A stretch of 31,521 nt of DNA. Source: Escherichia phage 204576. The notes under the pieces are model-generated. The model saw nothing but the letters and a program-made list of their open reading frames with translations. It made no database searches and had not been told where the DNA came from. Of the stretch, positions 1 to 27,209 are shown one piece after another (position 1 is the stretch's first letter; every line of letters starts with the position of its first letter). Made by a program: the position numbers and the translations under genes. The DNA lies in sequence record CP025907.1. The stretch is one strand, 5' to 3'.

Positions 1-522
1 TGATGATCTGAAACTTCAGACCGCGCAGGATTCAGACAATGGATTTTCGGCGCTTGAACAGGCGCTGCTGCGGTTATATCGCCGCCGGTCTTGGCGTTTC
101 CTACGAACAGTTGTCCCGTGATTACTCGAAGGTCAGTTATTCAAGTGCGCCGCGCATCCGCCAATGAGTCGTGGCGCTATTTTATGGGGCGGCGAAAATT
201 TATTGCGTCCCGGCTGGCCACGCAGATGTTTTCCTGCTGGCTGGAAGAGGCACTTCTTCGGGGGATTATTCGTCCCCACGGGCACGTTTTGATTTTTATC
301 AGGCGCGATCAGCCTGGTCACGGCTGAGTGGATTGGAGCCGAAGAATGGCCATTGACGGGCTCAAGGAGGTTCAGGAATCAGTGATGCGCATTGAGGCCG
401 GACTGAGCACGTATGAGAAAGAGCTGGCGCTGATGGGCGAGGATTATCAGGACATTTTCCGCCAGCAGGTCAGGGAATCTGCAGAGCGGGAAAAGCCGGA
501 CTCTCACGTCCGGTGTGGATAG
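1..522 (+). CDS. Portal protein (gpB-like), 3' portion; reading frame switches at least once
   Basis: Position immediately upstream of the C/Nu3 protease-scaffold gene in lambda gene order; ORFs 91..327 and 328..522 in different frames. No direct sequence match recalled, assignment by synteny only. Confidence 0.4.
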
Positions 523-582
523 CGCAGGCGTATCAGCAGCAGATAGCGGAGAGTCGCAGGCCGGAAGAGGAGACAACACCAC

Positions 583-2082
583 GTGAGACGTAATCTTTCA
601 CACATTATTGCCGCAGCATTCAATGAACCGCTGCTTCTGGAGCCGCCTATGCGCGGGTTTTCTTTTGCGCGCTCGGCGCGAGATGGGGGCAGCAAGTCTT
701 TCGGTACCACAACAGCAGGTACAGCTTGATGCTCCGGAATGCTGGCTGAAACGGACGAGTACATGGCGGAGGTAAACGACCGGCCCGTGTTTACCGGGTG
801 GTGAACGGTATTGCGGTACTGCCGGTGAGCGGCACGCTGGTGCACGGCTGGGGGGGATGCGGCCATTTTCCGGAATGACTGGCTATGACGGCATTGTCGC
901 CTGTCTTCAGCAGGCAATGGCAGATAGCCAGGTGCGGGGCATACTGCTGGACATTGACAGTCCGGGCGGGCAGGCCGCCGGCGCGTTTGACTGCGCTGAC
1001 ATGATGATTACGCCCTCCGGCAGCAGAAGCCGGTCTGGGCACTGTGTAATGACACGGCCTGTTCTGCGGCCATGCTGCTGGCGTCGGCCTGCTCCCGACG
1101 GCTGGTTACCCAGACATCCCGTATCGGTTCCATTGGCGTGATGATGAGCCATGTCAGCTATGCCGGTCATCTGGCGCAGGCCGGTGTGGATATCACGCTG
1201 ATTTACTCAGGGGCGCACAAGGTGGATGGCAATCAGTTTGAAGCGTTCCGGCAGAGGTTCGCCAGGACATGCAGCAGCGGATTGATGCGGCGCGCCGGAT
1301 GTTTGCCGAAAAGTGGCGATGTTTACCGGTCTGTCTGTTGATGCAGTCACGGGAACAGAGGCCGCTGTTTTTGAAGGTCAGTCCGGCATTGAGGCCGGGC
1401 TGGCGGATGAATTAATCAATGCGTCGGATGCCATCAGTGTGATGGCCACGGCGCTGAACAGTAATGTCAGAGGAGGCACTATGCCGCAATTAACTGCAAC
1501 GGAAGCCGCGCGTGCAGGAGAACCAGCGAGTGATGGGGATCCTGACATGCCAGGAAGCGAAAGGACGTGAACAGCTTGCCACGATGCTGGCAGGGCAACA
1601 GGGCATGAGCGTTGAACAGGCCCGGGCGATTCTGGCCGCGGCGGCACCGCAGCAGCCGGTGGCATCCGCGCAGAGTGAAGCCGATCGCATTATGGCGTGT
1701 GAAGAAGCGAACGGTCGTGAACAACTGGCGGCAACGCTGGCGGCGATGCGGAGATGACGGTGGAAAAAGCCCGCCGATCCTGGCGGCTGCACCACTGGCG
1801 GATGCCGGGCCCTCGCTTCGTGATCAGATCATGGCCCTGGATGAGGCAAAAGGGGCAGAAGCGCAGGCTGAAAAACTGGCGGCCTGCCCGGGAATGACCG
1901 TGGAGAACGCCCGGGCTGTGCTGGCTGCGGGATCAGGTAAGGCCGAACCGGTCTCTGCATCCACAACCGCCCTGTTTGAACATTTCATGGCGAATCATTC
2001 ACCGGCAGCGGTGCGGGGTGGCGTGTCACAGACGTCAGCAGACGGTGATGCGGACGTGAAAATGCTCATGGCCATGCCATGA
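583..2082 (+). CDS. C: Head protease/scaffold (lambda C / Nu3-like, S49 peptidase family); frameshifted into about 5 ORF fragments
   Basis: Fragments read NEPLLLEP, GILLDIDSPGGQAAGAFDCADMM, LLASA.SRRLVTQT.RIGSIGVMM, ITLIYSG.HKVDGN and MGIL.CEEA.GRE, all matching lambda C/Nu3 from memory. GTG start about 583 after a GGAAGAGGAGA ribosome-binding site. Confidence 0.8.
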
Positions 2083-2118
2083 AGTCAGTGCTGACCATCA
2101 ATATGAGGTTTTAACAAA

Positions 2119-2503
2119 ATGGTGACGAAAACCATCACTGAACAGCGTGCGGAAGTACGTATTTTTGCCGGTAATGATCCGGCTCATACCGCCAGGCAGC
2201 AGCGGGATTTCTTCTGCAACACCGGCTCTGACGCCCCTGATGCTGGATGAAGCCACCGGGAAACTGGTGGTCTGGGATGGACAGAAAGCCGGTAGTGCGG
2301 TTGGCATACTGGTACTGCCGCTTGAAGGCACAGAGACGGTGCTGACCTATTACAAGTCGGGGACCTTTGCGACGGAGGCAATCCGCTGGCCTGACAGTGT
2401 GGATGAACACAAAAAGGCAAATGCCTTTGCCGACACAGCCCTGAGTCACGCGGCTCTGCGTAACACGTTATCAGGCCACCATGGTGACCTGACTGATTTC
2501 TGA
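2119..2503 (+). CDS. D: Head decoration protein D; one frameshift near 2195
   Basis: GNDPAHTA in the start frame and PALTPLMLDEATGKLVVWDG...GILVLP...LTYYKSGTF in ORF 2147..2503 match lambda gpD; the frame change lies at accgccagg. Confidence 0.85.
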
Positions 2504-2520
2504 ATGAAAGGAACTGATTT

Positions 2521-3546
2521 ATGGGATTGTTTACGACCCGCCAGTTACTCGGTTATACCGAACAAAAAGTGAAATTCCGTGCGCTGTTTCTGGAGCTGTT
2601 TTTCCGCCGTACGGTGAATTTCCACACCGAAGAGGTGATGCTGGACAAAATTACCGGAAAAACGCCGGTGGCGGCCTATGTCTCCCCGATCGTTGAAGGA
2701 AAAGTGCTTCGCCATCGCGGTGGTGAAACCCGCGTGTTACGTCCGGGCTACGTCAAGCCGAAACACGAATTTAATTACCAGCAGGCGGTTGAGCGCCTTC
2801 CTGGTGAAGATCCGGCTCAGCTGAACGACCCGGCCTACCGTCGTCTGCGTATCATTACCGATAACCTCAAACAGGAAGAGCACGCCATTGTCCAGGTGGA
2901 AGAAATGCAGGCGGTGAATGCCGTGCTGTATGGCAAATACACCATGGAAGGGGATCAGTTTGATACTGTCGAGGTGGATTTCGGGCGCTCTGAAGGAAAT
3001 AACATTGAGCAGGCTGACGGTAAAAATGGTCTGAGCAGGACCGTGATACGTTTGATCCGACGCATGATATTGACCTCTACTGCGATCAGGCCAGCGGCCT
3101 TGTGAATATCGCCATTATGGACGGTACGGTCTGGCGTCTGCTGAATGGCTTTAAGCTGTTCCGCGAAAAACTGGATACCCGTCGCGGCTCAAATTCACAA
3201 CTCGAAACGGCAGTGAAAGATCTGGGCGCAGTGGTGTCCTTCAAGGGGTATTACGGCGATCTGGCCATTGTGGTGGCGAAAACGTCTTATGTGGCAGAGG
3301 ACGGTACCGAAAAACGTTATCTGCCGGAGGGCATGCTGGTGTTGGGGAATACGGCGGCAGAGGGATTCGTTGCTATGGTGCCATTAAGGATGCACAGGCG
3401 TTGTCTGAAGGAGTGGTGGCTTCTTCCCGTTACCCGAACACTGGCTGACCGTGGGCGATCCGTCCTGTGAATTCACCATGACGCAGTCCGCTCCGCTGAT
3501 GGTGCTGCCGGATCCGGATGAGTTTGTGGTGGTACAGGTGAAATAA
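2521..3546 (+). CDS. E: Major capsid protein E; two compensating frameshifts (about 3035 and about 3380)
   Basis: N-terminal ORF 2521..3105 matches lambda gpE (YVSPIV.G.V.R.RGG, PGYVKPKHE, AIVQVEEMQAV.AVL.GKYTM); the middle frame reads KLDTRRGSNS.LETAVKDLG; the C-terminus MTQSAPLMVLPDPDEFVVVQVK ends at 3546. Total span equals 341 codons as in lambda. Confidence 0.9.
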
Positions 3547-3596
3547 TCCGTGAGCGGGGGCGAAATGCCCCGTGTCTTTTTTCACAGGAGGCTGAG

Positions 3597-3979
3597 ATGG
3601 CAACAAAAGAAGAAAATCTGAATCGTCTTCGTCAACTGGCTGACCTGCTGGGCGCGAGGCGGATATGTCGGGGAGTGCTGCGGATATTGCTCAACGTGTG
3701 TCTGAGTGGGAAGAGGAGCTTGCTGTTTCCCCGGAGGGCATTATGCACTCTGATGAGAGCGGGGCTGATCAAAATCACACAGACGATGGTGAGCAGTTGA
3801 ACAACACGGATGCTCCGGATGATGTTAAAGCCGTCCGGGTACGGAAGTGCCTGCAAGTAATGGGGTATTGCCCGGAGACAGGTCGTCCCGTTGAGCTGGC
3901 GTTACGGGGTATGCGTGTTCTGGTGCCATCATCACTGGCAACGGCCATGATACAGCACGGAACGGCTGAATATGCGTGA
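3597..3979 (+). CDS. DNA packaging/head completion protein FI-like; frameshift near 3660
   Basis: Two overlapping ORFs (3597..3800, 3665..3979) between E and FII; acidic protein; assignment mainly by synteny. Confidence 0.55.
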
Positions 3980-4310
3980 TTTTCAGAATGCCTTTGATGC
4001 TGCCCTCGCCGGGGTAGACAGTACGATCGTTGAAGTGATGGGGCTCTGTGCGCAGTTCACCTCGGGGGCACAGTGTGGCAGCGAAGTTCAGGGGGTTTTT
4101 GATGATCCGGAGTCGCTGGGGTTTGTCGGTGGCGGGGTCCGTATTGAAGGAAGCAGCCCGTCATTATTTGTGCGGACGGATACGGTTCGTGCCGTGCGGC
4201 GTGGTGACACGCTGACCATTAATGGTGAGATATTCTGGGTGGATCGTGTTTCTCCGGATGACGGGGGCAGCTGTTATCTCTGGCTCAACCGTGGTCAACC
4301 ACGCAGTTAA
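3972..4310 (+). CDS. FII: Head-tail joining protein FII
   Basis: Intact 112-aa ORF; GVFDDPE, EGSSPSLFVRTD.VR..RRGDTLTI and FWVDRVSPDDGGSC.LWL match lambda gpFII. ATG overlaps the FI stop (ATGCGTGA). Confidence 0.85.
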   Translation: MRDFQNAFDAALAGVDSTIVEVMGLCAQFTSGAQCGSEVQGVFDDPESLGFVGGGVRIEGSSPSLFVRTDTVRAVRRGDTLTINGEIFWVDRVSPDDGGSCYLWLNRGQPRS

Positions 4311-4338
4311 CCGGCGACGATAAACGCAGGGTGAAATT

Positions 4339-4848
4339 ATGGCGATAAAAGGGCTTGATCAGGCGATTGACAATCTGAGCCGGGTTCGTAAAAACGCCAT
4401 TCCGGCGGCTTCAGCAATGGCCATTAACCGCGTGGCCACAACGGCGATTAATCAGTCTTCATCACAGGTTGCCCGGGAGACAAAGATTCGCCGGAAACTG
4501 GTTAAGGAACGGTCCAGACTGAAACGGGCGACGGTCAGAAATCCGAATGCCAGAATTATCGTTAACCGCGGGTGATCTCCCTGTGATTAAGCTGGGGATC
4601 AGGATGCTGGGGCGTCGCCCGAACAGCATACTTAAAGCCGGTCAGCATCGGTATCAGCGGGCATTTATTCAGCGATTAAAAAATGGTCGCTGGCATGTCA
4701 TGCAGCGTGTGGCCGGGAAAACCGTTACCCATTGATGTGGTGAAATCCCGATGGCGGCCCCACTGAAACAGGCATTTGATGAGAATGTTGACCGTATCCG
4801 GCGTGAACGCCTGCCTAAAGAACTGGCATACGCGCTGAACAACAACTG
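4339..4848 (+). CDS. Z: Tail completion protein Z; about 2 frameshifts
   Basis: MAIKGL.QA..NLSR, AMAINRVA, SQVARETK.RRKLVKER.RLKRATV.NP, GDLPVIKLG and AFIQ.LKNGRWHVMQRVAGK match lambda gpZ across three frames. Confidence 0.85.
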
Positions 4849-4865
4849 AGGATTGCAATAAAACG

Positions 4866-5261
4866 ATGAAACACACTGACATTCGTGCCGCAGTGCTGGA
4901 TGCACTCGAGCAGCATGAACACGGGGCGACGCTGTTTGATGGTCGCCCCGTTGTTTTTGACGAAGAGGATTTTCCTGCGATCGCGGTTTATCTGACGGAT
5001 GCAGAGTATACCGGTGAAGAGCTGGATGCAGATACCTGGCGGGCCACGCTGCATATTGAGGTGTTTTTACCGGCACAGGTACCGGATTCAGAGCTTGATC
5101 AGTGGATGGAAAGCCGGATTTACCCGGCGATGACCGCGATCCCGGCACTGGCAGGACTGATTACCACGATGGTTACGCAGGGCTATGAGTATCGTCGTGA
5201 TGACGATATGGCGTTATGGAGTTCTGCAGATCTGACTTATTCCATTACATACGAGATGTGA
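4866..5261 (+). CDS. U: Tail terminator protein U
   Basis: Intact 131-aa ORF, near-identical to lambda gpU ([48 protein letters not shown]). Confidence 0.9.
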
Positions 5262-5268
5262 GGACGAT

Positions 5269-6019
5269 ATGGCAACACCAAATCCCCTTGAGCCGGTAAA
5301 AGGTGCCGGTACCACTCTGTGGGTTTACAACGGCAAGGGTGATGCTTATGCAAACCCGTTGTCAGACGATGACTGGCAGCGACTGGCTAAGGTGAAGGAT
5401 CTGACGCCGGGCGAGATGACGGCAGAATCCTACGATGATACTACCTGGATGATGAAGACGCGGACTGGACCGCGACCGGGCAGGGGCAGAAATCTGCAGG
5501 TGATACCAGTTTTACGCTGGCCTGGAAACCGGGAGAGGAAGGCCAGAAAGGGCTTATAGGCTGGTTTGAAAGCGGCGATGTCCGGGCCTATAAAATCCGT
5601 TTTCCGAATGGCACGGTGGATGTGTTTCGTGGCTGGGTCAGCAGTATCGGTAAGGCCGTGACGGCGAAAGAAGTGATCACCCGCACGGTGAAAGTCACTA
5701 ACGTGGGTAAACCTTCTGTAGCGGAAGAACGCAGCAAAATTACGCCGGTCAGTGCGATTAAGGTGACGCCGACATCCGGTACGGTGGCAAAAGGGAAAAC
5801 AACCACCCTGACGGTTTCTTTTGAGCCGGAAAGTGCAACCGACAAGACGTTCAGAGCGGTTTCCGCCGATCCGTCGAAAGCCACCATTAGTGTGAAAGAT
5901 ATGACAATTACGGTAAACGGCGTGCGACAGGTAAGGTGCAGATCCCTGTGGTGAGCGGAAATGGTCAGTTCGCCGCAGTGGCTGAAGTCACCGTTACTGA
6001 AGCGGGCGCTGCAGGGTAA
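5269..6019 (+). CDS. V: Major tail protein V; frameshifts near 5460 and 5930
   Basis: [46 protein letters not shown] and [36 protein letters not shown] match lambda gpV; C-terminus VVSGNG.FAAVAE.TVT. Confidence 0.9.
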
Positions 6020-6032
6020 ACGGAGGTAATAC

Positions 6033-6463
6033 ATGTTTCTGAAAACAGAACAATTTGAATATAACGGTGTGTCTGTCACGCTTTCCGAATTGTCTGCGCT
6101 GCAGCGTATCGAGCATCTTGCCCTCCTGAAACGGCGTGCAGAACAGGCAGAATCCTGCGGCAACCTGCAGGTAAGCGTGGAAGATCTCGTCAGAACGGCG
6201 CGTTTCTGGTGGCGATGTCCCTGTGGCATAACCATCCACAGAAAACGCAGTCACCGTCAATGAATGAGGCCGTGATGAAGATAGAGCAGGAAGTGCTCAC
6301 CACCTGGCCTGCCGATGCCATTGCCCGGGCGGAAGACGTGGTGTTGTGCCTGTCCGGGATGATCGAAGCTGTTCGTCCGGATACTGATATTACTGAAGTG
6401 GCGAAAAATAACACGCTGACTGATGATGATTTTTCTGCGGGAAAGTCTTCGACGGCGAGCTGA
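6033..6463 (+). CDS. G: Tail assembly chaperone G; one extra frameshift near 6200
   Basis: MFLKTE.FE.NGV.VTLSELSALQRIEHLAL.KR.AEQAES then SLWHNHPQKTQ.PSMNEAV..IEQEVLTTWP match lambda gpG. Confidence 0.85.
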
Positions 6464-6875
6464 ACTTTGCCCTCAGACTGGCGCGTGAGATGGGGAGACC
6501 CGACTGGCGCGCCATGCTTGCCGGGATGACATCCACCGAATATGCCGACTGGCACCGTTTTTACCGCACGCATTATTTTCAGGATACCCAGCTGGATATG
6601 CATTTTTCCGGGCTGACGTACGCTGTACTCAGCCTGTTTTTTGCGATCCGGATATGCATCCTCTGATTTCAGTCTGCTTGTCCCCGGCATGAGGAAGGCA
6701 GGTGGAGAGGCCGGATGAGGACAAAATGCTGATGCAGAAAGCGGCAGGACTTGCCGGAGGCGTCCGGTTCGGTGGGGACGGAGGGCGCGATATTTTATCG
6801 TCTGCGGATGTGGCGGATGTCATGGTGGATGATGCCGCATTAATGATGGCTTCAGCGGGGATCCGGGAGGTGTGA
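6439..6875 (+). CDS. T: T portion of tail assembly protein G-T, reached by programmed -1 frameshift at GGGAAAG; also contains further frame breaks
   Basis: Slippery heptamer GGGAAAG at 6439..6445 in the G frame; the -1 frame reads LRLAREMGRPDWRAMLAGM.STEYADWHRFY.THYF and ends MQKAAGLAGGVRFG, matching lambda gpT. Confidence 0.75.
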
Positions 6876-6878
6876 GAT

Positions 6879-9434
6879 ATGTCCCAGCCGGTTGGTGATC
6901 TTGTTATTGACCTGAGTCTGGATGCTGTCCGTTTCGATGAGCAGATGAGCCGGGTAAGCGTCATTTTCAGGTCTGGATACCGACGCCAGAAAAACCGCCA
7001 GTGCTGTTGAACAGGGCCTGAGCCGCAGGCGCTGGCTGCACAAAAAGCCGGGATTTCCGTCGGGCAGTATAAAGCGGCCATGCGAACCCTGCCGCACAGT
7101 TTACGGATATCGCCACGCAGCTTGCCGGTGGTCAGAATCCCTGGTTGATCCTGCTGCAACAGGGCGGTCAGGTGAAGGACTCCTTCGGCGGGATGATCCC
7201 ATGTTCAGGGGCTTGCCGGTGCGATCACCCTGCCGATGGTCGGGGTCACCTCGCTGGCGGTGGCGACAGGTGCGCTGGCGTACGCCTGGTACCAGGGCGA
7301 CGCACGCTTTCAGAATTTAATAAAACGCTGGTCCTTTCCGGCAATCAGGCCGGACTGACTGCCGATCGTATGCTGACGCTCTCAAGAGCCGGGCAGGCAG
7401 CAGGGCTGACGTTTAACCAGGCGAGAGAGTCACTGGCAGCCCTGGTGAATGCCGGTGTGCGTGGTGGTGAACAGTTTGATGCCATCAACCAGAGTGTCGC
7501 GCGTTTTGCGTCTGCATCCGGTGTGGAGGTGGATAAAGTCGCTGAAGCCTTCGGGAAGCTGACCACTGACCGACGTCGGGACTGATGGCGATGGCGCGCC
7601 AGTTCCGTAACGTGACGGCAGAGCAGATTGCGTATGTTGCACAGCTGCAGCGTTCCGAGACGAGGCCGGGGCATTGCAGGCGGCGAACGATATCGCCACG
7701 AAAGGCTTTGATGAGCAGACCCGTCGCCTGAAAGAAAACATGGGAAACTGGAGACCTGGGCGGATAAAACAGGGAAGGCATTCAAATCGATGTGGGATGC
7801 CATTCTGGATATCGGTCGTCCGGAATCCTCAGCGGATATGCTCGCCAGTGCGCAGAAGGCATTTGATGAGGCGGATAAAAAATGGCAGTGGTACCAGAGC
7901 CGGAGCCAGCGCCGGGGAAAGACCTCCTCTTTTCGTGCGAACCTTCAGGGGGCATGGGATGACGGGAAAATGCCCGTCTGGGTCTGGCAGCGGCCACGCT
8001 GCAGTCGGATATGGAAAAGCCGGTGAACTGGCGGCAAGGGACAGGGCTGAGCGTGAGTCGTCACAGCTGAAGTATACCGGAGAGGCGCAGAAGGCGTATG
8101 AGCGCCTGCAGACGCCGCTGATAAATATACCGGCCCGTCAGAAAGAGCTGAATAAGGCCCTGAAAGACGGAAAAATCCTGCAGGCGGATTACAACACGCT
8201 GATGGCGTCGGCAAAAAAGGATTATGAATCGACGCTGAAAAAGCCGTCAGGTGTGAAGGTGTCTGCCGGTGAGCGCCAGGAAGACCGGGCGCATGCAGCC
8301 CTGCTGGCGCTTGAAACCGAGCTCAGGACGCTGGAAAAACACAGCGGTGTGAATGAGAAAATCAGCCAGCAGCGCCGGGATTTATGGGAAGCGGAAAGTC
8401 AGTATGTGGTCCTGAAAGAGGCCGCCACGAAACGGCAGTTATCTGAGCAGGAAAAATCCCTGCTGGCTCATGAGAAAGAGACGCTGGAGTACAAACGCCA
8501 GCTGGCTGAGCTGGGAGACAAGATTGAACACCAGAAGCGGCTGAATGAGCTGGCACAGCAGGCGGCGCGGTTTGAACAGCAGCAAGCGCGAAGCAGGCGG
8601 CAATCAGCGCAAAGCCGCGGCCTCACCGACCGTCAGGCGCAGCGGGAGTCGAAGAGCAGCGCCTTCGTGAGGTGTACGGTGATAATCCGGCTGCGCTGGC
8701 GAAGGCCACATCGGCACTGAAGAACACCTGGTCTGCGGAGGAGCAGCTTCGTGGAAGCTGGATGGCGGGATGAAGTCCGGCTGGGGAGAGTGGGCGGAAA
8801 GTGCGACGGACAGTTTTTCGCAGGTTAAAAGTGTGGCCACGCAGACCTTTGACGGTATTGCACAGAATATGGCAGCGATGCTGACCGGCAGCGAACAGAA
8901 CTGGCGTGGTTTCACCCGTTCTGTGCTGTCCATGCTGACAGAGATTTTTTCTGAAGCAGGCGATGGTGGGGATAGTCGGGAGTATCGGCAGCGCCATTGC
9001 GGGGCTGTTGGTGGCGGCGCATCCGCGTCAGGCGGTACAGCCATTCAGGCTGCGGCGGCGAACTTCCATTTCGCGACCGGGGGATTTACGGGGACGGGGG
9101 GTAAATATGAACCTGCGGGGATTGTTCATCGCGGGGAGTTTGTCTTCACGAAGGAGGCGACCAGCCGGATTGGTGTCGGCAATCTGTACCGCCTGATGCG
9201 GGGCTATGCGGAAGGTGGTTATGTCGGCGGTGCCGGAAGTCCGGCGCAGATGCGGCGGGCGGAAGGCATTAATTTTAATCAGAACAATCACGTGGTGATT
9301 CAGAACGACGGCCCCAACGGGCGGGCAGGGCCGCAGCTGATGAAAGCGGTGTATGAGATGGCCCGCAAGGGGCACAGGATGAACTCCGGCTGCAGTTGCG
9401 TGATGGCGGTATGTTATCAGGGAGCGGTGGATGA
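6879..9434 (+). CDS. H: Tail tape measure protein H; at least 6 frameshifts
   Basis: Extensive matches to lambda gpH across ORFs 7145..7585, 7674..8720, 7790..8026 and 8770..9723 (LILLQQGGQVKDSFGGMIP, FNKTLVLSGNQAGLTADRML, SQLKYTGEAQKAYERLQTPL, GIVHRGEFVFTKEATSRIGVGNLYRLMRGYA). Span of 852 codons is close to lambda's 853 aa. Confidence 0.9.
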
Positions 9435-9756
9435 AACCTTTCGCTGGAAAGTGAAGCCGGATATGGAGGTGAACTCGCAGCCATCGGTGCGTGAAGTGCG
9501 TTTTGGTGACGGGTACTCACAGCGTATGGCGGCAGGGCTGAATGCTGACCTGAAAACATACAGGGTGACGCTTTCCGTGACCCGGGAGGAGGCCGGCATC
9601 TGGAAGCGTTCCTGGCAGAGCACGGTGGCTGGAAGGATTTTTGTGGAAGCCACCCTATGCATACCGGCAGATAAAGGTGACCTGTGCCGGGTGGTCTGCG
9701 CGGGTCGGGATGTTGCGCGTTGAGTTCAGCGCGGAGTTTAAGCAGGTGGTGAACTG
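9431..9756 (+). CDS. M: Minor tail protein M; frameshift near 9620
   Basis: FRWKVKP.M.V.S.PSVR.VRFGDGYSQR...GLNA.LKTY.VTLSV.REEA and C-terminal MLRVEFSAEF.QVVN match lambda gpM; ATGA overlap with the H stop. Confidence 0.85.
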
Positions 9757-10454
9757 ATGCAGGATATTCGCGAAGAAAGTCTGAACGAGTCGGTTAAGTC
9801 AGAGCAGTCACCGCGGGTGGTACTCTGGGAAATCGACCTGACGGTACAGGGTGGTGAGCGGTATTTTTTCTGTAATGAGCTGAATGAAAAAGGGGAGCCG
9901 GTCACCTGGCAGGGGCGTAAGTATGAGGCGTACCCGATTGATGGCAGCGGCTTTGAAATGAACGGGAAAGGCAGCAGTGCCAGACCGTCGCTGACGGTGT
10001 CCAATCTGTTCGGCCTTGTCACCGGGATGGCGGAAGACCTGCAGAGTCTGGTGGGGGCCACGGTGGTCCGCCGCCGGGTGTATGCCCGTTTTCTGGATGC
10101 GGTGAATTTTGTGGCGGGCAATCCGGAAGCGGACCGGAGCAGGAGCTGAGCGACCGCTGGGTGGTGGAGCAGATGTCGCAGCTGACAGCCATGACGGCCT
10201 CGTTTGTGCTGGCCACACCGACCGAGACGGACGGAGCGCAGTTTCCCGGTCGTATCATGCTGGCGAACACCTGTATGTGGACCTACCGCTCTGATGAGTG
10301 TGGTTACACGGGCGGGGCTGTGGCGGATGAGTTCGATAAACCCACCACGGATATCCGTAAGGACAGATGCAGCAAGTGCATGCGCGGGTGTGAACTGCGC
10401 AGGAATGTCGGCAATTTTGGCGGTTTCCTTTCCATTAATAAACTTTCGCAGTAA
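9757..10454 (+). CDS. L: Minor tail protein L; frameshift near 10140
   Basis: MQDIR.E.LNE, VVLWEIDLT, GGERYFFCNE.NEKGEPVTWQGR and FPGRIMLANTC.WTYR.DECGY...NVGNFGGFLSINKLSQ match lambda gpL. Confidence 0.9.
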
Positions 10455-10464
10455 ATCCCGGTTT

Positions 10465-11207
10465 ATGACACAGACTGAATCAGCGATTCTGGCGCATGCC
10501 CGGCGGTGTGCGCCTGCGGAGTCGTGCGGCTTCGTGATAAGCACGCCGGAGGGGGAGCGGTATATCCCTTGTGTGAATATTTCCGCAGAGCCGGAGGCGT
10601 ATTTCGTATCGCACCGGAAGACTGGCTGCGGGCAGAGATACAGGGGGAGATTGTGGCACTGGTCCACAGTCATCCCGGTGAGCTGCCCTGGCTGAGCGAG
10701 GCTGACCGGCGGCTGCAGATAAAAAGCGCACTGCCCTGGTGGCTGGTCTGCCGGGGGGAAATTCATAAATTCTGCTGTGTGCCACATCTGACAGGACGGC
10801 GCTTTGAGCACGGGGTGACGGACTGTTACACGCTGTTCCGGGATGCATACCATCTGGCGGGAATTGATATGCCGGATTTTCATCGCGAGGATGACTGGTG
10901 GCGCAACGGCCAGAACCTGTACCTGGACAATATGGCAGTCACCGGCTTTTACCGGGTGCCCCTGTCCTCTGCACAGCCGGGCGATATCCTGCTGTGCTGC
11001 TTCGGCGCATCGGTGGCTAATCATGCTGCCATTTACTGCGGCAACGGTGAACTGCTTCACCATATTCCTGAACAACTGAGTAAACGGGAGAGGTATTCCG
11101 AAAAATGGCAACGACGAACGCATTCTGTCTGGCGTCACCGCCACTGGCACACATCTGCCTTCACGGGGATTTACAACGATTTGGCCGCCGCCTCAGCCTG
11201 TATGTGA
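10465..11207 (+). CDS. K: Tail assembly protein K (NlpC/P60-like); frameshift near 10600
   Basis: MTQTESAILAHARRCAPAESCGFV.STPEGERY in the start frame, then GEIVALVHSHPG.LPWLSEADRRLQ and HGVTDCYTLFRDAYHLAGI.MPDFHREDDWWRNGQNLYLDN match lambda gpK. Confidence 0.9.
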
Positions 11208-11784
11208 ACACGGCAGCGGAAGCCATTCGCGCCCTGTCGATGCAGATGCCGGGCTTTCGCCTTCAGATGAACGAAGGCTGGTACCAGATACGTATTGCCG
11301 GTGAAGACACGGCACCGGAGGTGGTGTACGCCCGCCTTCACGAACAGCTGGGTGAGGGAACGGTCATCCACATTGTGCCGCGACTGGCCGGGGCCGGAAA
11401 GGGTGGACTGCAGATTGTGTTGGGGCGGCAGCCATCGTGGGCTCTTTCTTCACTGCCGGGGCATCAATGGCGTTATGGGGTTCAGCCCTGGCAGCCGGTG
11501 GTTTTTCTGCCACCACGATGCTGTTTTCACTTGGAGCCAGCATGATTCTGGGCGGTGTGGCCCAGATGCTGGCCCCGAAGGCAAAAACACCGGATTACCG
11601 CGCAACGGATAACGGCAGACAGAACACGTACTTTTCCTCGCTGGATAACATGATTGCCCAGGGGAACTCGATGCCGGTGCCTTACGGGGAAATGCTGGTT
11701 GGCTCCCGCCGTATATCCCAGGACATCAGCACCCGTGATGAAGGCGGGGGCGGAAAGGTCGTGGTTATCGGGCGACAGGGATAA
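11105..11784 (+). CDS. I: Tail assembly protein I; frameshift near 11430; 5' end overlaps K in another frame
   Basis: LASP..A.ICL.GDLQRFGRR, WYQ.RIAG.D and FSLGASM.LGGVAQMLAPKA.TP...TDNG.QNTYFSSLDNM.AQGN match lambda gpI. Confidence 0.85.
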
Positions 11785-11831
11785 AACATAAAAAAATCCC
11801 GCAGTGATCGCGGAGCTGCGGGGACAGACAA

Positions 11832-11957
11832 ATGAAGATCAATGTGAAGGAGTTGTTTTTGTTACTCGGGCAAAAAAACACTAACGCAGTGAAATTATAC
11901 GCGCCACAGTCAGTGTGTGAAAATGTGAAGATATTCAGAAATTTTATTCCGTCATGA
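11832..11957 (+). CDS. Possible small ORF (41 codons) in the I-J intergenic insert
   Basis: ATG at 11832 with a weak GGGGA ribosome-binding site; MKINVKELFLLLGQKNTNAVKLYAPQSVCENVKIFRNFIPS; lies between hairpins. No homology recalled. Confidence 0.2.
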   Translation: MKINVKELFLLLGQKNTNAVKLYAPQSVCENVKIFRNFIPS

Positions 11958-12024
11958 CGCAGGCACCCGGTGAGGTGCCTGTTGTTTTTGTGAGTGAACA
12001 ATTATCACGGTAAGAGGTGATGTA

Positions 12025-15000
12025 ATGGGCAAAGGTGGCGGCAAGGCGCACACACCGCGTGAGGCGAAAGACAATCTCAAATCCACGCAGATGATGAGCG
12101 TGATTGATGCGATTGGTGAGGGACCGATAGATGGCCCGGTGAAAGGCCTGCAGAGTATTCTGGTGAACAAAACCCCGCTGACGGACACGGACGGTAATCC
12201 CGTGATACACGGTGTGACCGCGGTCTGGCGTGCCGGGGAGCAGGAGCAGACACCACCGGAAGGCTTTGAGTCCTCCGGCTCTGAAACTGTACTGGGTGTC
12301 GAAGTGACCAGGGCAAAACCGGTAACACGCACCATTACGTCAGCGAACATTGACCGCCTGCGGGTGACCTTCGGGGTGCAGTCACTGGTGGAGACCACGT
12401 CAAAGGGTGACCGTAATCCGTCCTCTGTCCGTCTGCTGATTCAGTTACAGCGTAACGGTAACTGGGTGACAGAAAAGGATGTCACCATTAACGGCAAGAC
12501 CACCTCACAGTTCCTGGCCTCGGTGATTCTGGATAATCTGCCTCCCCGCCCCTTTAACATCCGGATGGTCAGGGAGACGGCGGACAGCACCACGGACCAG
12601 CTGCAGAACAGAACGCTGTGGTCGTCATACACCGAAATCATCGATGTGAAACAGTGCTACCCGAACACGGCCATTGTGGGGATGCAGGTGGATGCGGAGC
12701 AGTTTGGTGGTCAGCAGATGACGGTGAACTACCATATCCGCGGTCGCATCATCCAGGTGCCGTCAAACTATGACCCGGAAAAACGCACGTACAGTGGTAT
12801 CTGGGACGGCAGTCTGAAACCGGCATACAGCAACAATCCGGCCTGGTGTCTGTGGGACATGCTGACTCACCCGCGCTACGGCATGGAAAACGTCTGGGGG
12901 CGGCGGATGTGGACAAGTGGGCGCTGTATGCCATCGGGCAGTACTGCGACCAGATGGTGCCGGATGGCTTCGGGGGCACCGAGCCGCGGATGACCTTCAA
13001 TGCGTACCTGGCACAACAGCGTAAGGCGTGGGATGTTCTCAGTGATTTCTGCTCGGCGATGCGCTGTATGCCGGTATGGAACGGCCAGATGCTGACGTTT
13101 GTTCAGGACCGCCTGTCGGATGTGGTGTGGCCGTACACCAACAGCGATGTGGTGGTGGATGATAACGGCGTGGGGTTCCGCTACAGCTTCAGTGCCCTGA
13201 AGGACCGGCACACGGCGGTGGAGGTGAATTACACCGACCCGCAGAACGGCTGGCAGACCTCCACGGAGCTGGTGGAAGACCCGGAAGCCATACTGCGCTA
13301 CGGGCGCAATCTGCTGAAGATGGACGCGTTCGGCTGTACCAGCCGCGGTCAGGCCCACCGTGCCGGACTGTGGGTGATAAAGACCGAACTGCTGGAAACG
13401 CAGACGGTGGATTTCACGCTCGGGTCTCAGGGGCTGCGGCACACACCCGGTGACATTATTGAAATCTGTGATAATGACTATGCCGGGACCCTGACCGGCG
13501 GACGTGTCCTGTCCATTGATGCTGCCACCCGCACCCTGACGCTGGACCGTGAGGTTACCCTGCCGGAGACCGGTGCCGCCACGGTGAACCTGATTAACGG
13601 CAGCGGTAAGCCGGTGAGTGTGGACATCACCGAACACCCCGCGCCGGACCGGATACAGGTCAGTACCCTGCCTGATGGTGTGGAGACATACGGGGTGTGG
13701 GGACTCTCCCTGCCGTCACTGCGCCGTCGCCTGTTCCGCTGTGTCTCCATCCGGGAAAACACGGACGGCACCTTTGCCATCACGGCGGTGCAGCACGTAC
13801 CGGAAAAAGAAGCCATCGTGGATAACGGTGCCCGCTTTGAGCCGCAGTCAGGTTCCCTGAACAGCGTCATCCCACCGGCAGTGCAGCACCTGACGGTGGA
13901 GGTGAGCGCAGCTGACGGCCAGTATCTGGCGCAGGCGAAATGGGACACGCCGCGGGTGGTGAAGGGTGTGCGCTTCAGTCTGCGCCTGACCAGTGGTAAG
14001 GGAACGGATGCCAGACTGGTGACCACCGCCATCACCGCAGACACGGAGCACCGTTTCAGCGGCCTGCCGCTCGGGGAATACACCCTGACGGTGCGGGCGA
14101 TAAACAGCTATGGCCAGCAGGGTGAACCTGCCACCACCACCTTCCGGATTGCCGCACCGGCAGCACCGTCGCGGATTGAGCTGACGCCGGGCTATTTTCA
14201 GATAACCGCCACGCCGCATCTTGCCGTTTATGACCCGACGGTACAGTTTGAGTTCTGGTTCTCGGAAAAGCGGATTGCGGATATCAGGCAGGTTGAAACC
14301 GCAGCCCGCTATCTTGGCTCGGCGCTGTACTGGATAGCTGCCAGTATCAATATCAAACCGGGCCATGATTATTATTTTTATATCCGCAGTGTGAATACTG
14401 TTGGCAAATCGGCATTTGTGGAGGCTGTTGGCCAGCCGAGTGATGATGCATCCGGCTATCTGGATTTTTTCAAAGGAGAGATAGGGAAAACCCATCTGGC
14501 TCAGGAGTTGTGGACGCAGATTGATAACGGTCAGCTTGCGCCTGACCTGGCTGAAATCAGGACGTCCATTACGGATGTCAGCAATGAAATCACGCAGACC
14601 GTCAATAAAAAACTGGAAGACCAGAGTGCAGCGATCCAGCAGATACAGAAGGTTCAGGTTGATACAAATAATAATCTGAACAGCATGTGGGCTGTGAAGC
14701 TGCAGCAGATGCAGGACGGACGCCTTTATATTGCGGGTATCGGTGCCGGTATTGAGAACACCCCCGACGGCATGCAGAGTCAGGTGCTGCTGGCGGCAGA
14801 CAGGATTGCGATGATTAATCCTGCAAATGGCAACACAAAACCGATGTTTGTTGGTCAGGGTGATCAGATATTCATGAACGAAGTGTTCCTGAAATACCTG
14901 ACGGCTCCCACCATTACCAGCGGCGGTAATCCTCCGGCATTTTCCCTGACACCGGACGGGCGGCTGACGGCGAAAAATGCCGATATCAGCGGTAACGTGA

Positions 15001-15497
15001 ATGCGAACTCCGGGACGCTCAACAACGTCACGATTAACGAGAACTGTCGGGTTCTGGGAAAATTGTCCGCCAACCAGATTGAAGGCGATCTCGTTAAAAC
15101 AGTGGGCAAAGCTTTCCCCCGGGACTCCCGTGCACCGGAACGGTGGCCATCAGGGACCATCACCGTCAGGGTTTATGACGATCAGCCGTTTGACCGGCAG
15201 ATTGTTATTCCGGCGGTGGCATTCAGCGGCGCTAAACATGAGCGGGAGAATAACGATATTTATTCGTCATGCCGCCTGATAGTACGGAAAAACGGTGCTG
15301 AAATTTATAACCGTACCGCGCTGGATAATACGCTGATTTACAGTGGTGTTATTGATATGCCAGCTGGTCGCGGCCACATGACGCTGGAGTTTTCGGTGTC
15401 AGCATGGCTGGTGAATAACTGGTATCCCACAGCAAGTATCAGCGATTTGCTGGTTGTGGTGATGAAGAAAGCCACCGCAGGCATCAGTATCAGCTGA
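12025..15497 (+). CDS. J: Central tail fibre / host specificity protein J; single frameshift near 12890
   Basis: Near-collinear match to lambda gpJ from [19 protein letters not shown] to the C-terminus. The frame break is at ggcatggaaaacgt where lambda encodes YGMGKRL, consistent with loss of one G. Confidence 0.95.
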
Positions 15498-15514
15498 ATT
15501 TTATAACCCATATA

Positions 15515-15542
15515 CGGGCGCCAGAAATGGCGCCTTTTTTAT
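15515..15542 (+). terminator. Rho-independent terminator after J
   Basis: GGCGCC-agaaat-GGCGCC stem-loop followed by TTTTTT. Confidence 0.7.
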
Positions 15543-15564
15543 TGCAGAAAAGCGAGAGGTAATT

Positions 15565-16164
15565 ATGCGTAAAGTTTGTGCAGTCATTTTGTCCGCAGCC
15601 ATCTGTCTGTCCGTATCCGGTGCGCCTGCATGGGCGTCTGAACATCAGTCCACACTGAGCGCGGGGTATCTTCATGCCCGTACGAACGCTCCCGGCAGCG
15701 ATAATCTGAACGGGATTAACGTGAAATACCGTTATGAGTTTACGGACGCGCTGGGGCTGATTACGTCCTTCAGTTATGCCAATGCTGAGGATGAGCAAAA
15801 AACGCACTACAGCGATACCCGCTGGCATGAAGATTCCGTGCGTAACCGCTGGTTCAGCGTGATGGCGGGGCCGTCTGTACGCGTGAATGAATGGTTCAGC
15901 GCGTATGCGATGGCGGGTGTAGCTTACAGCCGTGTGTCGACTTTCTCCGGGGATTATCTTCGCGTAACTGACAACAAGGGGAAAAAGCACGATGTGCTGA
16001 CCGGAAGTGATGACGGTCGTCACAGCAACACGTCTCTGGCGTGGGGGGCTGGCGTGCAGTTTAACCCGACCGAATCCGTGGCCATTGATATTGCTTATGA
16101 AGGCTCCGGCAGTGGTGACTGGCGCACTGACGGTTTCATCGTGGGTGTCGGTTATAAATTCTGA
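15565..16164 (+). CDS. lom: Lom outer-membrane protein (Ail/Lom family)
   Basis: Intact 199-aa ORF with signal-peptide-like N-terminus; INVKYRYE, YAMAGVA.SR and C-terminal IAYEGSGSGDWRTDGFIVGVGYKF identical to the lambda Lom end. Confidence 0.9.
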   Translation: MRKVCAVILSAAICLSVSGAPAWASEHQSTLSAGYLHARTNAPGSDNLNGINVKYRYEFTDALGLITSFSYANAEDEQKTHYSDTRWHEDSVRNRWFSVMAGPSVRVNEWFSAYAMAGVAYSRVSTFSGDYLRVTDNKGKKHDVLTGSDDGRHSNTSLAWGAGVQFNPTESVAIDIAYEGSGSGDWRTDGFIVGVGYKF

Positions 16165-16189
16165 TTAGCCAGGTAACACAGTGTTATGA

Positions 16190-16218
16190 CAGCCCGCCGG
16201 TTCAGGCGGGCTTTTTTG
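16190..16218 (+). terminator. Rho-independent terminator after lom
   Basis: GCCCGCC-ggttca-GGCGGGC stem followed by TTTTTT. Confidence 0.7.
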
Positions 16219-16228
16219 TGGGGTGAAT

Positions 16229-19200
16229 ATGGCAGTAAAGATTTCAGGTGTACTGAAAGACGGCACAGGAAAACCGGTACAGAACTGCACAATCCAGCTG
16301 AAAGCAAAACGTAACAGCACCACGGTGGTGGTGAACACGCTGGCCTCAGAAAATCCGGATGAAGCCGGGCGTTACAGCATGGACGTTGAGTACGGGCAGT
16401 ACAGCGTTATTCTGTTGGTGGAGGGATTCCCGCCGTCACATGCCGGGACCATCACCGTGTATGAAGATTCCAGACCAGGTACGCTGAATGATTTTCTCGG
16501 TGCCATGACGGAGGATGATGCCCGTCCTGAGGCACTGCGCCGTTTTGAACTGATGGTGGAAGAGGTGGCGCGTAACGCGTCCGCGGTGGCACAGAACACG
16601 GCAGCCGCGAAGAAGTCAGCCAGCGATGCCGGCACATCAGCCCGTGAGGCGGCAACCCATGCGACTGATGCTGCAGGCTCAGCACGCGCAGCCAGCACGT
16701 CAGCCGGACAGGCCGCGTCGTCGGCTCAGTCAGCATCTTCCAGCGCAGGAACGGCATCAACAAAGGCCAGTGAAGCATCGAAAAGTGCTGCTGCTGCAGA
16801 GTCCTCAAAAAGCGCGGCAGCTACCAGTGCCGCTGCGGCGAAAACGTCAGAAACGAATGCGGCAGCGTCACAACAATCAGCAGCCACTTCTGCATCCGCC
16901 GCGACCACGAAGGCGTCAGAAGCAGCCACCTCAGCCCGGGATGCGGCGGCCTCAAAAGAGGCAGCGAAATCATCAGAAACGAACGCATCATCAAGCGCCA
17001 GTAGTGCCGCTTCCTCGGCAACGGCGGCAGCAAATTCCGCGAAGGCGGCAAAAACGTCCGAGACGAACGCCAGGTCTTCTGAAACGGCAGCGGGACAGAG
17101 CGCCTCAGCTGCGGCAGGCTCAAAAACAGCGGCTGCGTCGTCTGCCAGTGCCGCGTCAACAAGTGCCGGGCAGGCCTCAGCCAGTGCCACCGCCGCCGGA
17201 AAATCGGCAGAAAGTGCCGCATCGTCTGCTTCAACAGCCACAACGAAGGCTGGCGAAGCCACTGAACAGGCCAGCGCAGCAGCGAGGTCTGCTTCCGCAG
17301 CGAAGACATCCGAGACGAACGCGAAAGCGTCGGAAACCAGCGCAGAATCCTCAAAAACGGCTGCCGCATCGTCCGCCAGTTCGGCGGCGTCATCGGCATC
17401 ATCGGCGTCTGCTTCAAAAGATGAGGCGACCAGACAAGCGTCCGCAGCGAAGGGCAGCGCCACGACAGCATCCACGAAGGCGACAGAGGCAGCTGGCAGT
17501 GCGACGGCGGCAGCACAGAGCAAAAGTACGGCGGAATCCGCGGCAACGCGCGCCGAGACAGCGGCAAAACGGGCAGAGGATATTGCATCCGCCGTGGCGC
17601 TTGAGGATGCAAGTACGACGAAAAAGGGGATAGTACAGCTCAGCAGTGCGACCAACAGTACGTCTGAAACGCTGGCGGCAACGCCAAAGGCAGTAAAATC
17701 AGCCTATGACAATGCAGAGAAACGTCTGCAGAAAGACCAGAACGGCGCTGATATACCCGATAAGGGACGCTTCCTGAACAACATTAACGCGGTCAGTAAA
17801 ACAGACTTTGCTGATAAGCGTGGTATGCGTTATGTGCGGGTTAACGCTCCTGCAGGTGCAATATCTGGAAAATATTACCCTGTTGTTGTTATGCGTTCTG
17901 CTGGCTCAGTAAGCGAACTGGCATCAAGGGTCATTATCACCACGGCAACGCGAGCCGCAGGCGATCCGATGAATAACTGCGAGTTTAACGGATTTGTTAT
18001 GCCAGCCGGATGGACTGACAGAGGGCGTTATGCCTATGGAATGTTCTGGCAATATCAAAACAATGAACGAGCCATTCACTCAATAATGATGAGTAATAAG
18101 GGCGATGATTTGCGCTCTGTGTTCTATGTTGATGGCGCTGCTTTCCCTGTTTTTGCGTTTATCGAAGATGGCCTGTCAATATCCGCACCTGGTGCTGATC
18201 TCGTTGTTAACGATACGACCTACAAGTTTGGGGCAACAAATCCGGCGACTGAATGTATCGCGGCGGACGTTATCCTTGATTTTAAGAGTGGGCGTGGTTT
18301 TTATGAGTCTCATTCGTTAATCGTTAACGATAACTTGTCGTGCAAAAAACTTTTTGCCACAGACGAAATTGTAGCGCGTGGTGGTAATCAGATTCGAATG
18401 ATAGGTGGGGAGTATGGGGCATTATGGCGTAATGATGGCGCTAAAACTTACCTGCTGCTTACCAATCAAGGTGATGTTTATGGTGGCTGGAATACATTAA
18501 GACCGTTTGCTATTGATAACGCAACCGGCGAACTGGTTATTGGAACCAAACTGTCTGCAAGTCTGAACGGTAACGCATTGACAGCAACAAAGCTGCAAAC
18601 GCCAAGACGGGTTTCTGGGATTGAGTTTGATGGTTCCAGAGATATTACTTTAACCGCCGCGCATGTGGCTGCTTTTGCCAGAAGGGCAACGGATACATAT
18701 GCCGATGCGGATGGTGGCGTTCCCTGGAATGCCGAATCAGGCGCTTATAATGTCACCCGCTCTGGCTACAGCTATATTCTGGTTAACTTCTATACCGGAG
18801 TCGGAAGTTGCCGGACCTTGCAGATGAAGGCGCATTACAGAAATGGTGGTCTGTTCTACCGTTCTTCAAGAGACGGTTATGGTTTTGAGGAAGACTGGGC
18901 AGAAGTTTATACCTCGAAAAATCTTCCACCAGAAAGCTACCCAGTCGGCGCACCAATCCCGTGGCCATCAGATACCGTTCCGTCTGGTTATGCCCTGATG
19001 CAGGGGCAGACTTTTAACAAATCTGCCTACCCGAAACTTGCAGCCGCTTATCCGTCAGGCGTGATCCCTGATATGCGTGGCTGGACGATTAAGGGCAAAC
19101 CTGCCAGTGGTCGGGCCGTATTGTCTCAGGAACAGGACGGCATTAAATCGCATACCCACAGCGCCAGCGCATCCAGTACGGATTTGGGGACGAAAACCAC

Positions 19201-19642
19201 ATCGTCGTTTGATTACGGCACTAAATCCACGAATAACACCGGGGCGCATACGCACAGTCTGAGTGGCTCTACGGGGTCTGCCGGTGTTCATACTCATGGT
19301 AATGGTATTCGTTGGCCAGGAGGCGGCGGTTCTGCGTTAGCATTTTATGATGGCGGTGGGTTCACTTATGTCCAGAATTCACAGTATCAAGTAAGCCCGG
19401 GGACTTCTTCCTATAGATCGTATTATCAACGTATTCAGACACAGTCAGCAGGTGCTCATACCCACTCGCTGTCTGGTACTGCAGCAAGTTCTGGCGCACA
19501 TGCACATACTGTAGGTATTGGTGCGCATACGCACTCCGTTGCGATTGGTTCACATGGACACACCATCACCGTTAACGCTGCGGGTAACGCGGAAAACACC
19601 GTCAAAAACATCGCATTTAACTATATTGTGAGGCTTGCATAA
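16229..19642 (+). CDS. stf: Side tail fibre protein Stf (long variant, about 1137 aa)
   Basis: N-terminus [26 protein letters not shown] matches lambda Stf; Ala/Ser/Thr-rich repeat region; C-terminus with GAHTHSLSG/HxH repeats and [26 protein letters not shown] identical to the lambda Stf end. Confidence 0.9.
16600..17600 (+). repeat. Low-complexity Ala/Ser/Thr-rich coding repeats within stf
   Basis: Repeated AAKTSETNA / SASAAS motifs; generates long spurious ORFs in the other five frames. Confidence 0.8.
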
Positions 19643-20226: not shown

Positions 20227-20280
20227 TCATTGGGATTATGCCGCAGCACGTCTTAAGCAAGAACGTGCTGCGGTTGGATG

Positions 20281-20937: not shown

Positions 20938-21005
20938 TGATTTCACCATGTTATAGTTTTATTTGTGAATTAAATCAATTATGGCGATGAATTACAAGGG
21001 GTTAA

Positions 21006-21275
21006 ATGCTGCCGCAGCATAGCGATATTGAAATAGCCTGGTATGCTTCGATACAGCAGGAGCCGAATGGCTGGAAGACCGTCACCACACAGTTCTACAT
21101 CCAGGAATTCAGTGAGTATATTGCGCCACTGCAGGATGCTGTAGATCTGGAAATCGCAACGGAGGAAGAAAGATCGTTGCTGGAGGCATGGAATAAATAT
21201 CGGGTATTGTTGAATCGTGTTGATACATCAACTGCACCTGATATTGAGTGGCCTGCAAATCCTGTCAGGGAGTAA
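21006..21275 (+). pseudogene. Remnant second tfa (C-terminal part of a different tfa allele)
   Basis: C-terminal 50 aa ([52 protein letters not shown]) near-identical to the end of the tfa at 19642..20226; the N-terminal part is short and not Tfa-like. Confidence 0.65.
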
Positions 21276-21278
21276 TCA

Positions 21279-27180: not shown

Positions 27181-27209
27181 ACTGATTCCTCGCGGTGCTG
27201 TTTCGCTTA

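Follow-up and report, generated by a model that had tools for sequence, protein, structure and literature searches.

Clustered frameshifts in the genome record of a lambdoid phage of enterotoxigenic Escherichia coli are very probably consensus errors

An ompW-integrating lambdoid phage and its relatives

Cryptic and defective lambdoid prophages of the Rac, DLP12, Qin and e14 type carry large deletions, IS insertions, rearrangements, and substitution divergence that are common to related strains. Lambdoid prophages integrated at ompW are found in enterotoxigenic Escherichia coli (ETEC), among them strains 103605, ETEC-2265, 120899, and others. The window, i.e., the whole stretch of 31,521 nucleotides of record CP025907.1 (Escherichia phage 204576) analyzed here, has the same gene order as these prophages from B to the replication genes. 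The prophage of strain 103605 is the same as the window except for the indels, and both share the order tail-attP-int, as in a phage or circular form; ETEC-2265 and most other ETEC prophages, in contrast, are in the integrated order, flanked by ompW/yciE sequence of the host. The head module resembles that of phage 21 (about 84% at the nucleotide level) and, at about 95%, that of the PhiR12 phages. Judged by gene similarity, the phage of the window is composed of phage-21-like head genes and lambda-like tail genes. The underlying DNA is almost certainly that of an intact lambdoid temperate phage of ETEC, which integrates at ompW.

The window aligns end to end with the 103605 prophage in one colinear block and is 65 bases shorter. 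The alignment contains 75 deleted and 10 inserted bases in 82 gap openings, and two mismatch columns. Both of these columns lie inside one garbled spot of eight bases (1006-1013), with zero substitutions elsewhere in the 31,521 bases. Positions 1-21991 are also colinear with the ETEC-2265 prophage, which differs from the first 13 kb of the window by two substitutions beyond the indels. Colinear alignments to these two intact prophages revealed no large deletion, IS insertion, or rearrangement in the window. According to the PGAP annotation, the matching head and tail genes are all intact in both 103605 and ETEC-2265. The window is 99.4-99.7% identical in DNA to the intact genes and nearly all differences are single-base indels, which indicates that the broken genes are not a chance resemblance. 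About ten ETEC genomes hold the intact version at 99.4% identity, and the shortfall corresponds essentially to the indels of the window itself.

Frame changes in the head and tail genes

Alignment to intact relatives upholds the claim of the original prediction that the head and tail genes are broken, as, of the structural genes B to J, only U is free of frameshifts. The damage had been put at two to six reading frames per gene, which is too low; up to 22 breaks occur in a single gene. There are 12 frame segments in C/Nu3, 3 in D, 4 in E, 2 in FI, 2 in FII, 6 in Z, 1 in U, 3 in V, 2 in G, 6 in T, 23 in H, 4 in M, and 2 each in L, K, I, and J.

All of these genes lie on the + strand. The 3' part of the portal gene B (1..593) has six indels, four deletions and two insertions. 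C/Nu3, the S49 peptidase/scaffold gene (583..2082), has nine deletions and three insertions and contains the garbled spot (1006..1013, + strand), where the consensus reads ATGATGATTACGCCC in the window and ATGATTTACCGCC in the reference. Three bases are deleted from the head decoration gene D (2119..2463). The major capsid gene E (2521..3546) has deletions at 3021 (A6 to A5), 3361, and 3436, and its product from the true start comprises 194 aa versus 342 aa when intact. One deletion, at 3649, affects FI (3597..3979). FII (3972..4323) had been regarded, together with U, as the only intact gene. This is true of U (4866..5261; 131 aa), the sole indel-free structural gene of the first error-rich block, but not of FII, in which two bases are missing at 4301, close to the 3' end (reference ACCACCCGC, window ACCACGC), so that the last codons are shifted and 112 aa instead of 117 remain. 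In Z (4339..4869), there are four deletions and one insertion; for three of the deletions (4721, 4727, and 4742), the reference bases are AAAAA/CCCC/AAAA.

The major tail gene V (5269..6019) has two deletions, the tail assembly chaperone gene G (6033..6463) has one at 6195, and T (6490..6898) has five. The tape measure gene H (6879..9433) is the most affected, with 21 deletions and two insertions, including the adjacent pair 8613/8614 in the stretch 8580-8660, within which the reference reads AAAAGCCC. M has three deletions and L, K, and I have one each (9431..11784). J (12025..15497) has lost just one base, a G of GGG at 12884, the final error of the first block. The lost G proposed for J near 12890 was correctly recognized, whereas the break in H near 7745, proposed as a run contraction, is the loss of a lone C (reference GGGAACACTGG). 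Intergenic DNA is also affected, e.g., at 3567, 26019, 26709, and 28208.

The indels of E and H had been considered to compensate each other. In E, this is a coincidence; the span of 1026 nt is kept since its three deletions total -3. In H, the net change is -19, and the resulting span of 2555 nt is not divisible by three, which rules out compensation. Length-preserving compensation was rejected in general. The balance of inserted and deleted bases is divisible by three only for C/Nu3, D, E, Z, and M, as opposed to B, FI, FII, V, G, T, H, L, K, I, and J, a split that equals the chance expectation.

Spectrum, privacy and distribution of the indels

Deletions outnumber insertions by 7.5:1. The tabulation of indels by homopolymer against close relatives, which the original prediction had proposed, gave a strong run bias. 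Runs of at least two identical bases contain 69 of the 75 deletions (background 46.5%, p = 6e-17), and 47 lie in runs of at least three (background 17%, p = 1e-18). The deletion rate per run increases from 0.05% for single bases to 7-29% for runs of five. Very short runs of two or three C or G account for many hits, often at junctions of C and G runs such as CCGG, and six hits are outside any run. In the first block, C runs are affected at a higher rate than G runs (25/602 versus 15/993, p = 0.0015), and the asymmetry between A and T runs is not significant. The C/G asymmetry is unlike fixed double-strand mutations and is as expected of read errors on one strand.

The indels are specific to this record. 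In a MAFFT alignment of positions 1-12950 with five relatives, phage 21 and PhiR12_2_star among them, 58 of the 61 deletions and seven insertions occur in none of the five. No indel is shared with 103605, ETEC-2265, or FDAARGOS_1304 in the MAFFT alignment. The triple deletion in Z was found at none of 7,718 matching places in 3,896 complete E. coli genomes, and the A6 to A5 change in E at none of 1,077 matching places in 886 complete E. coli genomes. Exact scans of viral_contigs, genome_contigs, and metagenome_contigs with a 44-mer across the Z triple deletion gave no match, and a look-up of the truncated V product specific to the window (96 aa) gave no record. The truncated 194-aa E product, by contrast, has exact matches on five other public contigs, from SRR18681698, ERR4563278, ERR10498411, ERR10499097, and GCA_052952955.1, in phage backgrounds 94.8-97.9% identical. 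This suggests that the E site alone could be a real slippage hot spot, though the truncation occurs in no complete genome.

The indels fall into two blocks. Block 1 (1..12884) contains 70 indel columns relative to intact relatives, a loss of about 61 and a gain of about 9 bases, with a density of about six per kb up to 9.7 kb that drops to about one per kb by 12.9 kb. It is followed by a clean block (12885..25335), whose 12,451 bases have zero differences from 103605 and comprise most of J, lom, the tail fibre gene, tfa, a methyltransferase gene, the ompW fragment (attP), int, xis, and most of exo. At the per-run rates of block 1, about 62 deletions would be expected here and none is observed (P about 1e-27). 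Block 2 (25336..31521) has 13 deletions and two insertions, which break exo, DUF1482, cro, ydaT, the replisome organizer, DUF977, and one hypothetical gene, and its density climbs toward the end of the window. The density of one indel per 3-4 kb given earlier for the sequence after 12 kb conceals this unevenness, with one indel at 12884, none in 12885-25335, and 15 in 25336-31521.

Block 2 is a second error region, located beyond the 12-kb area described in the original prediction. G+C content was discarded as the cause of the blocks; positions 13-17.9 kb have 52-62% G+C like block 1, yet they are error-free. As to errors at Dam or Dcm methylation motifs, the two substitution columns of the window are confined to the garbled spot, and in the list of indels between the window and ETEC-2265, CCWGG was noted at one deletion only.

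Consensus error, its alternatives and known systems

The frameshifts are very probably (about 95%) errors in the deposited consensus and not mutations of the phage. This reading derives from the comparison with related genomes only. The original prediction had offered two alternatives, systematic indel sequencing error, which the data strongly support, and a degraded prophage, which the same data contradict. In blocks 1-12884 and 25336-31521, the consensus would have been built from too scant or poor read data of a single-molecule type, and such reads would cause bases to be dropped mainly in short runs of the same letter; between them (12885-25335), the consensus is perfect. The platform was probably a long-read or other homopolymer-prone chemistry. 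The likeliest cause of the blocks may be a depth or read quality that falls toward both ends.

Technical errors could also have been left if the blocks were repeats, shared with other lambdoid prophages of the same genome, that stayed uncorrected when short reads were used to polish a long-read or hybrid assembly, with clean unique sequence in between. Residual errors after such polishing are mostly in repeats (PMC8812927), and close ETEC genomes have four to seven places matching positions 1-12000. However, E has three errors and is single-copy in 103605, 120899, 204446, and others. The clean block is at least as repeated, with 9-13 places per record in a crude count of matching places. The density, moreover, falls smoothly toward the center from both ends, as would be more readily expected from a gradient in depth than from the edges of repeats. 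Unpolished repeats are thus unlikely and probably not the cause of the blocks. Programmed recoding, by ribosomal frameshifting or transcriptional slippage, would make the frame changes readable without any error. It explains a single one. The heptamer GGGAAAG at 6439..6445 (+ strand), near the 3' end of G, is followed by T in the -1 frame and is unchanged in the reference, and the annotation of phage 21 includes the joined GT product. We take this heptamer to be the slippery site of the programmed -1 frameshift between G and GT established in lambda. The change from G to T is a natural programmed frameshift, biological unlike the other breaks. A conserved slippery heptamer was found at this position only; the other approximately 80 sites share no slippery motif, are absent from all relatives, including the functional phages 21 and PhiR12, are in some cases intergenic, and are often a few bases apart (4721/4727/4742; 8613/8614). 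Except for G/GT, recoding is refuted by the absence of these sites in functional phages, and as a general explanation it has practically no chance of being correct.

The remaining alternatives accept the indels as real. In a genuinely degraded, non-inducible prophage, head and tail frameshifts would have gathered after selection was lost. The disruption of all structural genes but U is as in a possible dead prophage, homopolymer runs are natural slippage hot spots too (10.1101/346874), and the E truncation recurs on the five other contigs. The proportion of substitutions argues against decay. With two mismatch columns per 82 gap openings, the window lies far outside the range of natural relatives of the same module, which show 26-125 mismatches per gap opening (232/9, 624/5, and 2130/31). 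In mutation-accumulation lines of E. coli, substitutions exceed small indels by 10:1 in the wild type and by 5:1 in mismatch-repair mutants (10.1101/346874). From both ratios, 82 real indels would be expected to bring hundreds to thousands of substitutions. A decayed prophage should also show neutral substitutions at the usual ratio, lesions common to relatives, and large lesions, and the window has none of the three; no inheritance signal links its indels to the near-identical prophages of the approximately ten ETEC genomes. Decay likewise leaves unexplained the preference for C over G runs and the difference-free 12.45 kb between two error blocks, and the tail-attP-int order is unexpected from a long-dead prophage. 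Taken together, decay is very improbable. A localized hyper-indel process, e.g., in a mismatch-repair-deficient host or during error-prone repair or recombination synthesis, would account for the clustering, and the loss of mismatch repair raises the rate of homopolymer indels (10.1101/346874). Nevertheless, the substitution excess of mismatch-repair mutants in the same study is opposite to the window, at about 1:40. Indels at 0.5% of bases would be orders of magnitude above known mutational processes that leave no other change, and both the deletion bias and the run-length dependence match the error profiles of platforms. Such a process almost certainly did not operate here. The A6 run of E (3016-3021) might be a recurrent slippage hot spot that switches off capsid production in several independent lambdoid lineages, or, more broadly, some indels might be real and represent a burst of homopolymer contractions in two segments, through localized slippage-prone synthesis without substitutions. 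These two versions together deserve very little credence.

The frameshifts themselves offer no new biology, and their main relevance is for quality control. Taken at face value, the record would describe a dead prophage with about 25 pseudogenes. Its use in this form would bring dozens of spurious truncated proteins into databases and distort any tally of how many ETEC prophages are intact and how many are cryptic. The comparison provides a reusable, read-free test to distinguish consensus error from decay, based on the ratio of indels to substitutions relative to near-identical genomes, together with run-length dependence, privacy to one record, and occurrence in blocks.

With the cryptic lambdoid prophages Rac, DLP12, Qin, and e14, the window has in common its lambdoid gene content and structural genes that are untranslatable as written. 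It differs from them by its complete gene order and length, by the absence of substitutions, and by lesions that occur in no relative. The G/GT frameshift of phage lambda accounts for just one of the counted frame changes, and G and T of the window also have one and five deletions, respectively, which are probably artefactual. Errors left in long-read assemblies are mostly homopolymer indels that result in frameshifted ORFs (PMC8812927; PMC12007338). The features that the window shares with errors of long-read or low-depth assemblies (Wick & Holt 2022, PMC8812927; Kastor, PMC12007338) are indel-only differences dominated by deletions and dependent on run length, frameshifted ORFs, a lack of substitutions, and privacy to one record. 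Unlike evenly spread assembly errors, those of the window form two blocks, one on either side of an error-free core of 12.45 kb, and include many hits in very short runs.

Comparison with intact prophages

The first 12 kb of the window share 99.4% identity with a lambdoid prophage found in roughly ten genomes of enterotoxigenic E. coli (ETEC), 95-96% with PhiR12 phages, and about 84% with phage 21 and other lambda-like phages. The matching region of strain ETEC-2265 carries an unbroken gene series in its PGAP annotation: portal, S49 peptidase (C/Nu3), decoration protein (D), major capsid (E), FI, FII, Z, U, V, G, T, tape measure (H), M, L, K, I, J, lom, tail fibre, and tfa. Positions 1-21991 align to ETEC-2265 as a single colinear block that has 73 gap openings. 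All but 4 of its 19 mismatches lie within the last 90 bases, at the attachment site, where phage-borne and host-borne ompW sequences diverge. In strain 103605, the entire window is colinear, including the junction from the tail through the ompW fragment to int. Over the 31,521 bases, only 2 columns are mismatched; the alignment has 82 gap openings, through which the window lacks 75 bases and gains 10.

Frame segments per reference gene were counted in the window by following the alignment gene by gene. One segment was found in U; two each in FI, FII, G, L, K, I, and J; three in D and V; four in E and M; six in Z and T; 12 in C/Nu3; and 23 in H. The original prediction of broken head and tail genes is thus borne out in outline, with 2-23 segments in every listed gene except U. 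It had also regarded FII and U as intact, which holds for U, but the last codons of FII are altered by a 2-base deletion at 4301. The compensating indels proposed for E and H were not confirmed: E keeps a whole-codon length only because three deletions happen to sum to -3, and H, with 21 deletions and 2 insertions, has a net change of -19. The break in H near 7745 is real in the alignment, but here a lone C has disappeared (GGGAACACTGG to GGGAAACTGG), and no run was shortened; the lost G in J was found as GGG to GG at 12884. The lom, tail fibre, and tfa genes have no indels.

Spectrum and context of the indels

The two substituted columns both fall within a garbled 8-base spot in C/Nu3 (1006-1013; window ATGATGATTACGCCC, reference ATGATTTACCGCC), the sole non-indel difference in the window. 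Natural divergence in the same 13-kb module has another composition: ETEC-2265 differs from FDAARGOS_1304 by 232 mismatches and 9 gap openings, from PhiR12_2_star by 624 and 5, and from phage 21 by 2130 and 31. E. coli mutation-accumulation lines gain 10 substitutions per small indel in the wild type, and 5 per small indel when they are mismatch-repair mutants (10.1101/346874). From this excess, 82 real indels predict hundreds to thousands of substitutions, and none accompany them.

Deletions outnumber insertions 7.5 to 1. Of the 75 deletions, 69 lie in runs of at least two identical bases (background 46.5%, p = 6e-17), and 47 in runs of at least three (background 17%, p = 1e-18). Longer runs are steadily more prone to lose a base: about 0.05% of single bases are affected, but 7-29% of runs of five. 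Within positions 1-12884, loss affected 25 of 602 C runs and 15 of 993 G runs (p = 0.0015), more than twice as often per run for C. Such asymmetry is not expected of fixed double-strand mutation but can arise from single-strand read error. Many deletions in this block sit at junctions of C and G runs (CCGG, CCCGG, GCCGG). The C-run excess and the junction sites may constitute a platform signature that could reveal the chemistry.

Distribution and recurrence

Block 1 (1-12884) contains 70 indel columns; their density is about 6 per kb as far as 9.7 kb and then declines to about 1 per kb. It is followed by 12,451 bases (12885-25335) with zero differences, where the per-run rates of block 1 would give about 62 deletions (P(0) about 1e-27). 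Block 2 (25336 to the end), beyond the region originally highlighted, holds 13 deletions and 2 insertions, denser toward the window end, and breaks exo, DUF1482, cro, ydaT, the replisome organizer, DUF977, and one hypothetical gene. Intergenic indels also occur (3567, 26019, 26709, and 28208). Because density falls smoothly from either side to an error-free centre, the likeliest cause of the blocks is a loss of read depth or read quality toward the two ends of the stretch. A crude test gave no support to the alternative of repeats that short-read polishing had missed: gene E is single-copy in close relatives yet carries three errors, and the clean block has at least as many matching places per genome as block 1. 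G+C content also fails to account for the blocks.

In a six-way alignment of 1-12950, 58 of 61 deletions and all 7 insertions are found in the window only, with the reference state in 5 of 5 relatives; the other three deletions fall at a phage 21 gap or where shorter loci stop. Across all complete E. coli genomes, none of the 7,718 matching places (3,896 genomes) showed the Z deletions at 4721, 4727, and 4742, and none of 1,077 places (886 genomes) showed the A6-to-A5 change in E. The 194-aa truncated E that results from the latter (2521-3105; A run at 3016-3021) is encoded in exact copy on five other public contigs, namely the NCBI draft GCA_052952955.1 and the Logan contigs SRR18681698, ERR4563278, ERR10498411, and ERR10499097. 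These represent different lambdoid phage backgrounds, 94.8-97.9% identical. In the NCBI draft (JBQMUQ010000008.1), lambdoid structural genes are also fragmented (terminase 363+157 aa, portal 65+460, E 194+143, V 41+138, H 203+530), and 3 of its 47 indels are shared with the window. It looks like an independent error-rich assembly. As A5 occurs in no complete genome and the draft has many other broken genes, a recurrent platform error at the A6 run is likelier than a true slippage hot spot.

Origin of the frame breaks

The window runs from tail fibre through methyltransferase, ompW fragment (attP), int, and xis to exo (ompW fragment and int, 21864-23165, int on the minus strand), an order that fits a phage, circular or tandem form and not the integrated one. 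The chromosome record of strain 103605 (NZ_CP025920.1) has the same order, with two hokD-DUF968-rusA-Q-tRNA copies flanking the locus about 43.9 kb apart and a single gene E; ETEC-2265 and others show the normal integrated order beside ompW/yciE. Of the DUF968 copies in the duplicated hokD-Q segment of strain 103605 (2137-3192 and 46083-47141 of the locus), one is intact and one carries a frameshift in its annotation; a similar consensus error may have entered this RefSeq genome within a repeat. A class I SAM-dependent methyltransferase (20281-20949, minus strand) lies after the tail-fibre assembly gene and before attP, and next to it come fragments of tfa and DUF4376 genes (21099-21641). This moron-like cargo region is error-free.

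The original prediction had left sequencing error and a degraded prophage as alternatives, and only the former is supported. A genuinely decayed prophage is contradicted by the substitution ratio, by the lack of inherited and of large lesions, and by the error-free block in the centre. Moreover, tail-attP-int is the order of a phage or circular form, not of a long-dead insertion. Three defining features of decay were looked for and none was seen, so the record should not be labelled a cryptic prophage. The same substitution-to-indel ratio also contradicts a mutator or a local hyper-indel process. Recoding explains only G/GT, where one frame change is an ordinary programmed -1 frameshift: the window keeps the GGGAAAG heptamer at 6439, as in the reference, and the annotation of phage 21 includes a joined GT product.

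The frameshifts are almost certainly not a real biological feature but errors in the record, a known class of artefact on a known ETEC prophage. With no substitutions, a marked excess of deletions, and many affected C or G runs of 2-3 bases, the pattern suggests that a single-molecule-type consensus, rather than natural slippage, would have dropped the bases. Residual errors in long-read or low-depth assemblies are mostly of homopolymer length, frameshift ORFs, and spoil annotation (PMC8812927; PMC12007338), and the pattern in the window matches them.
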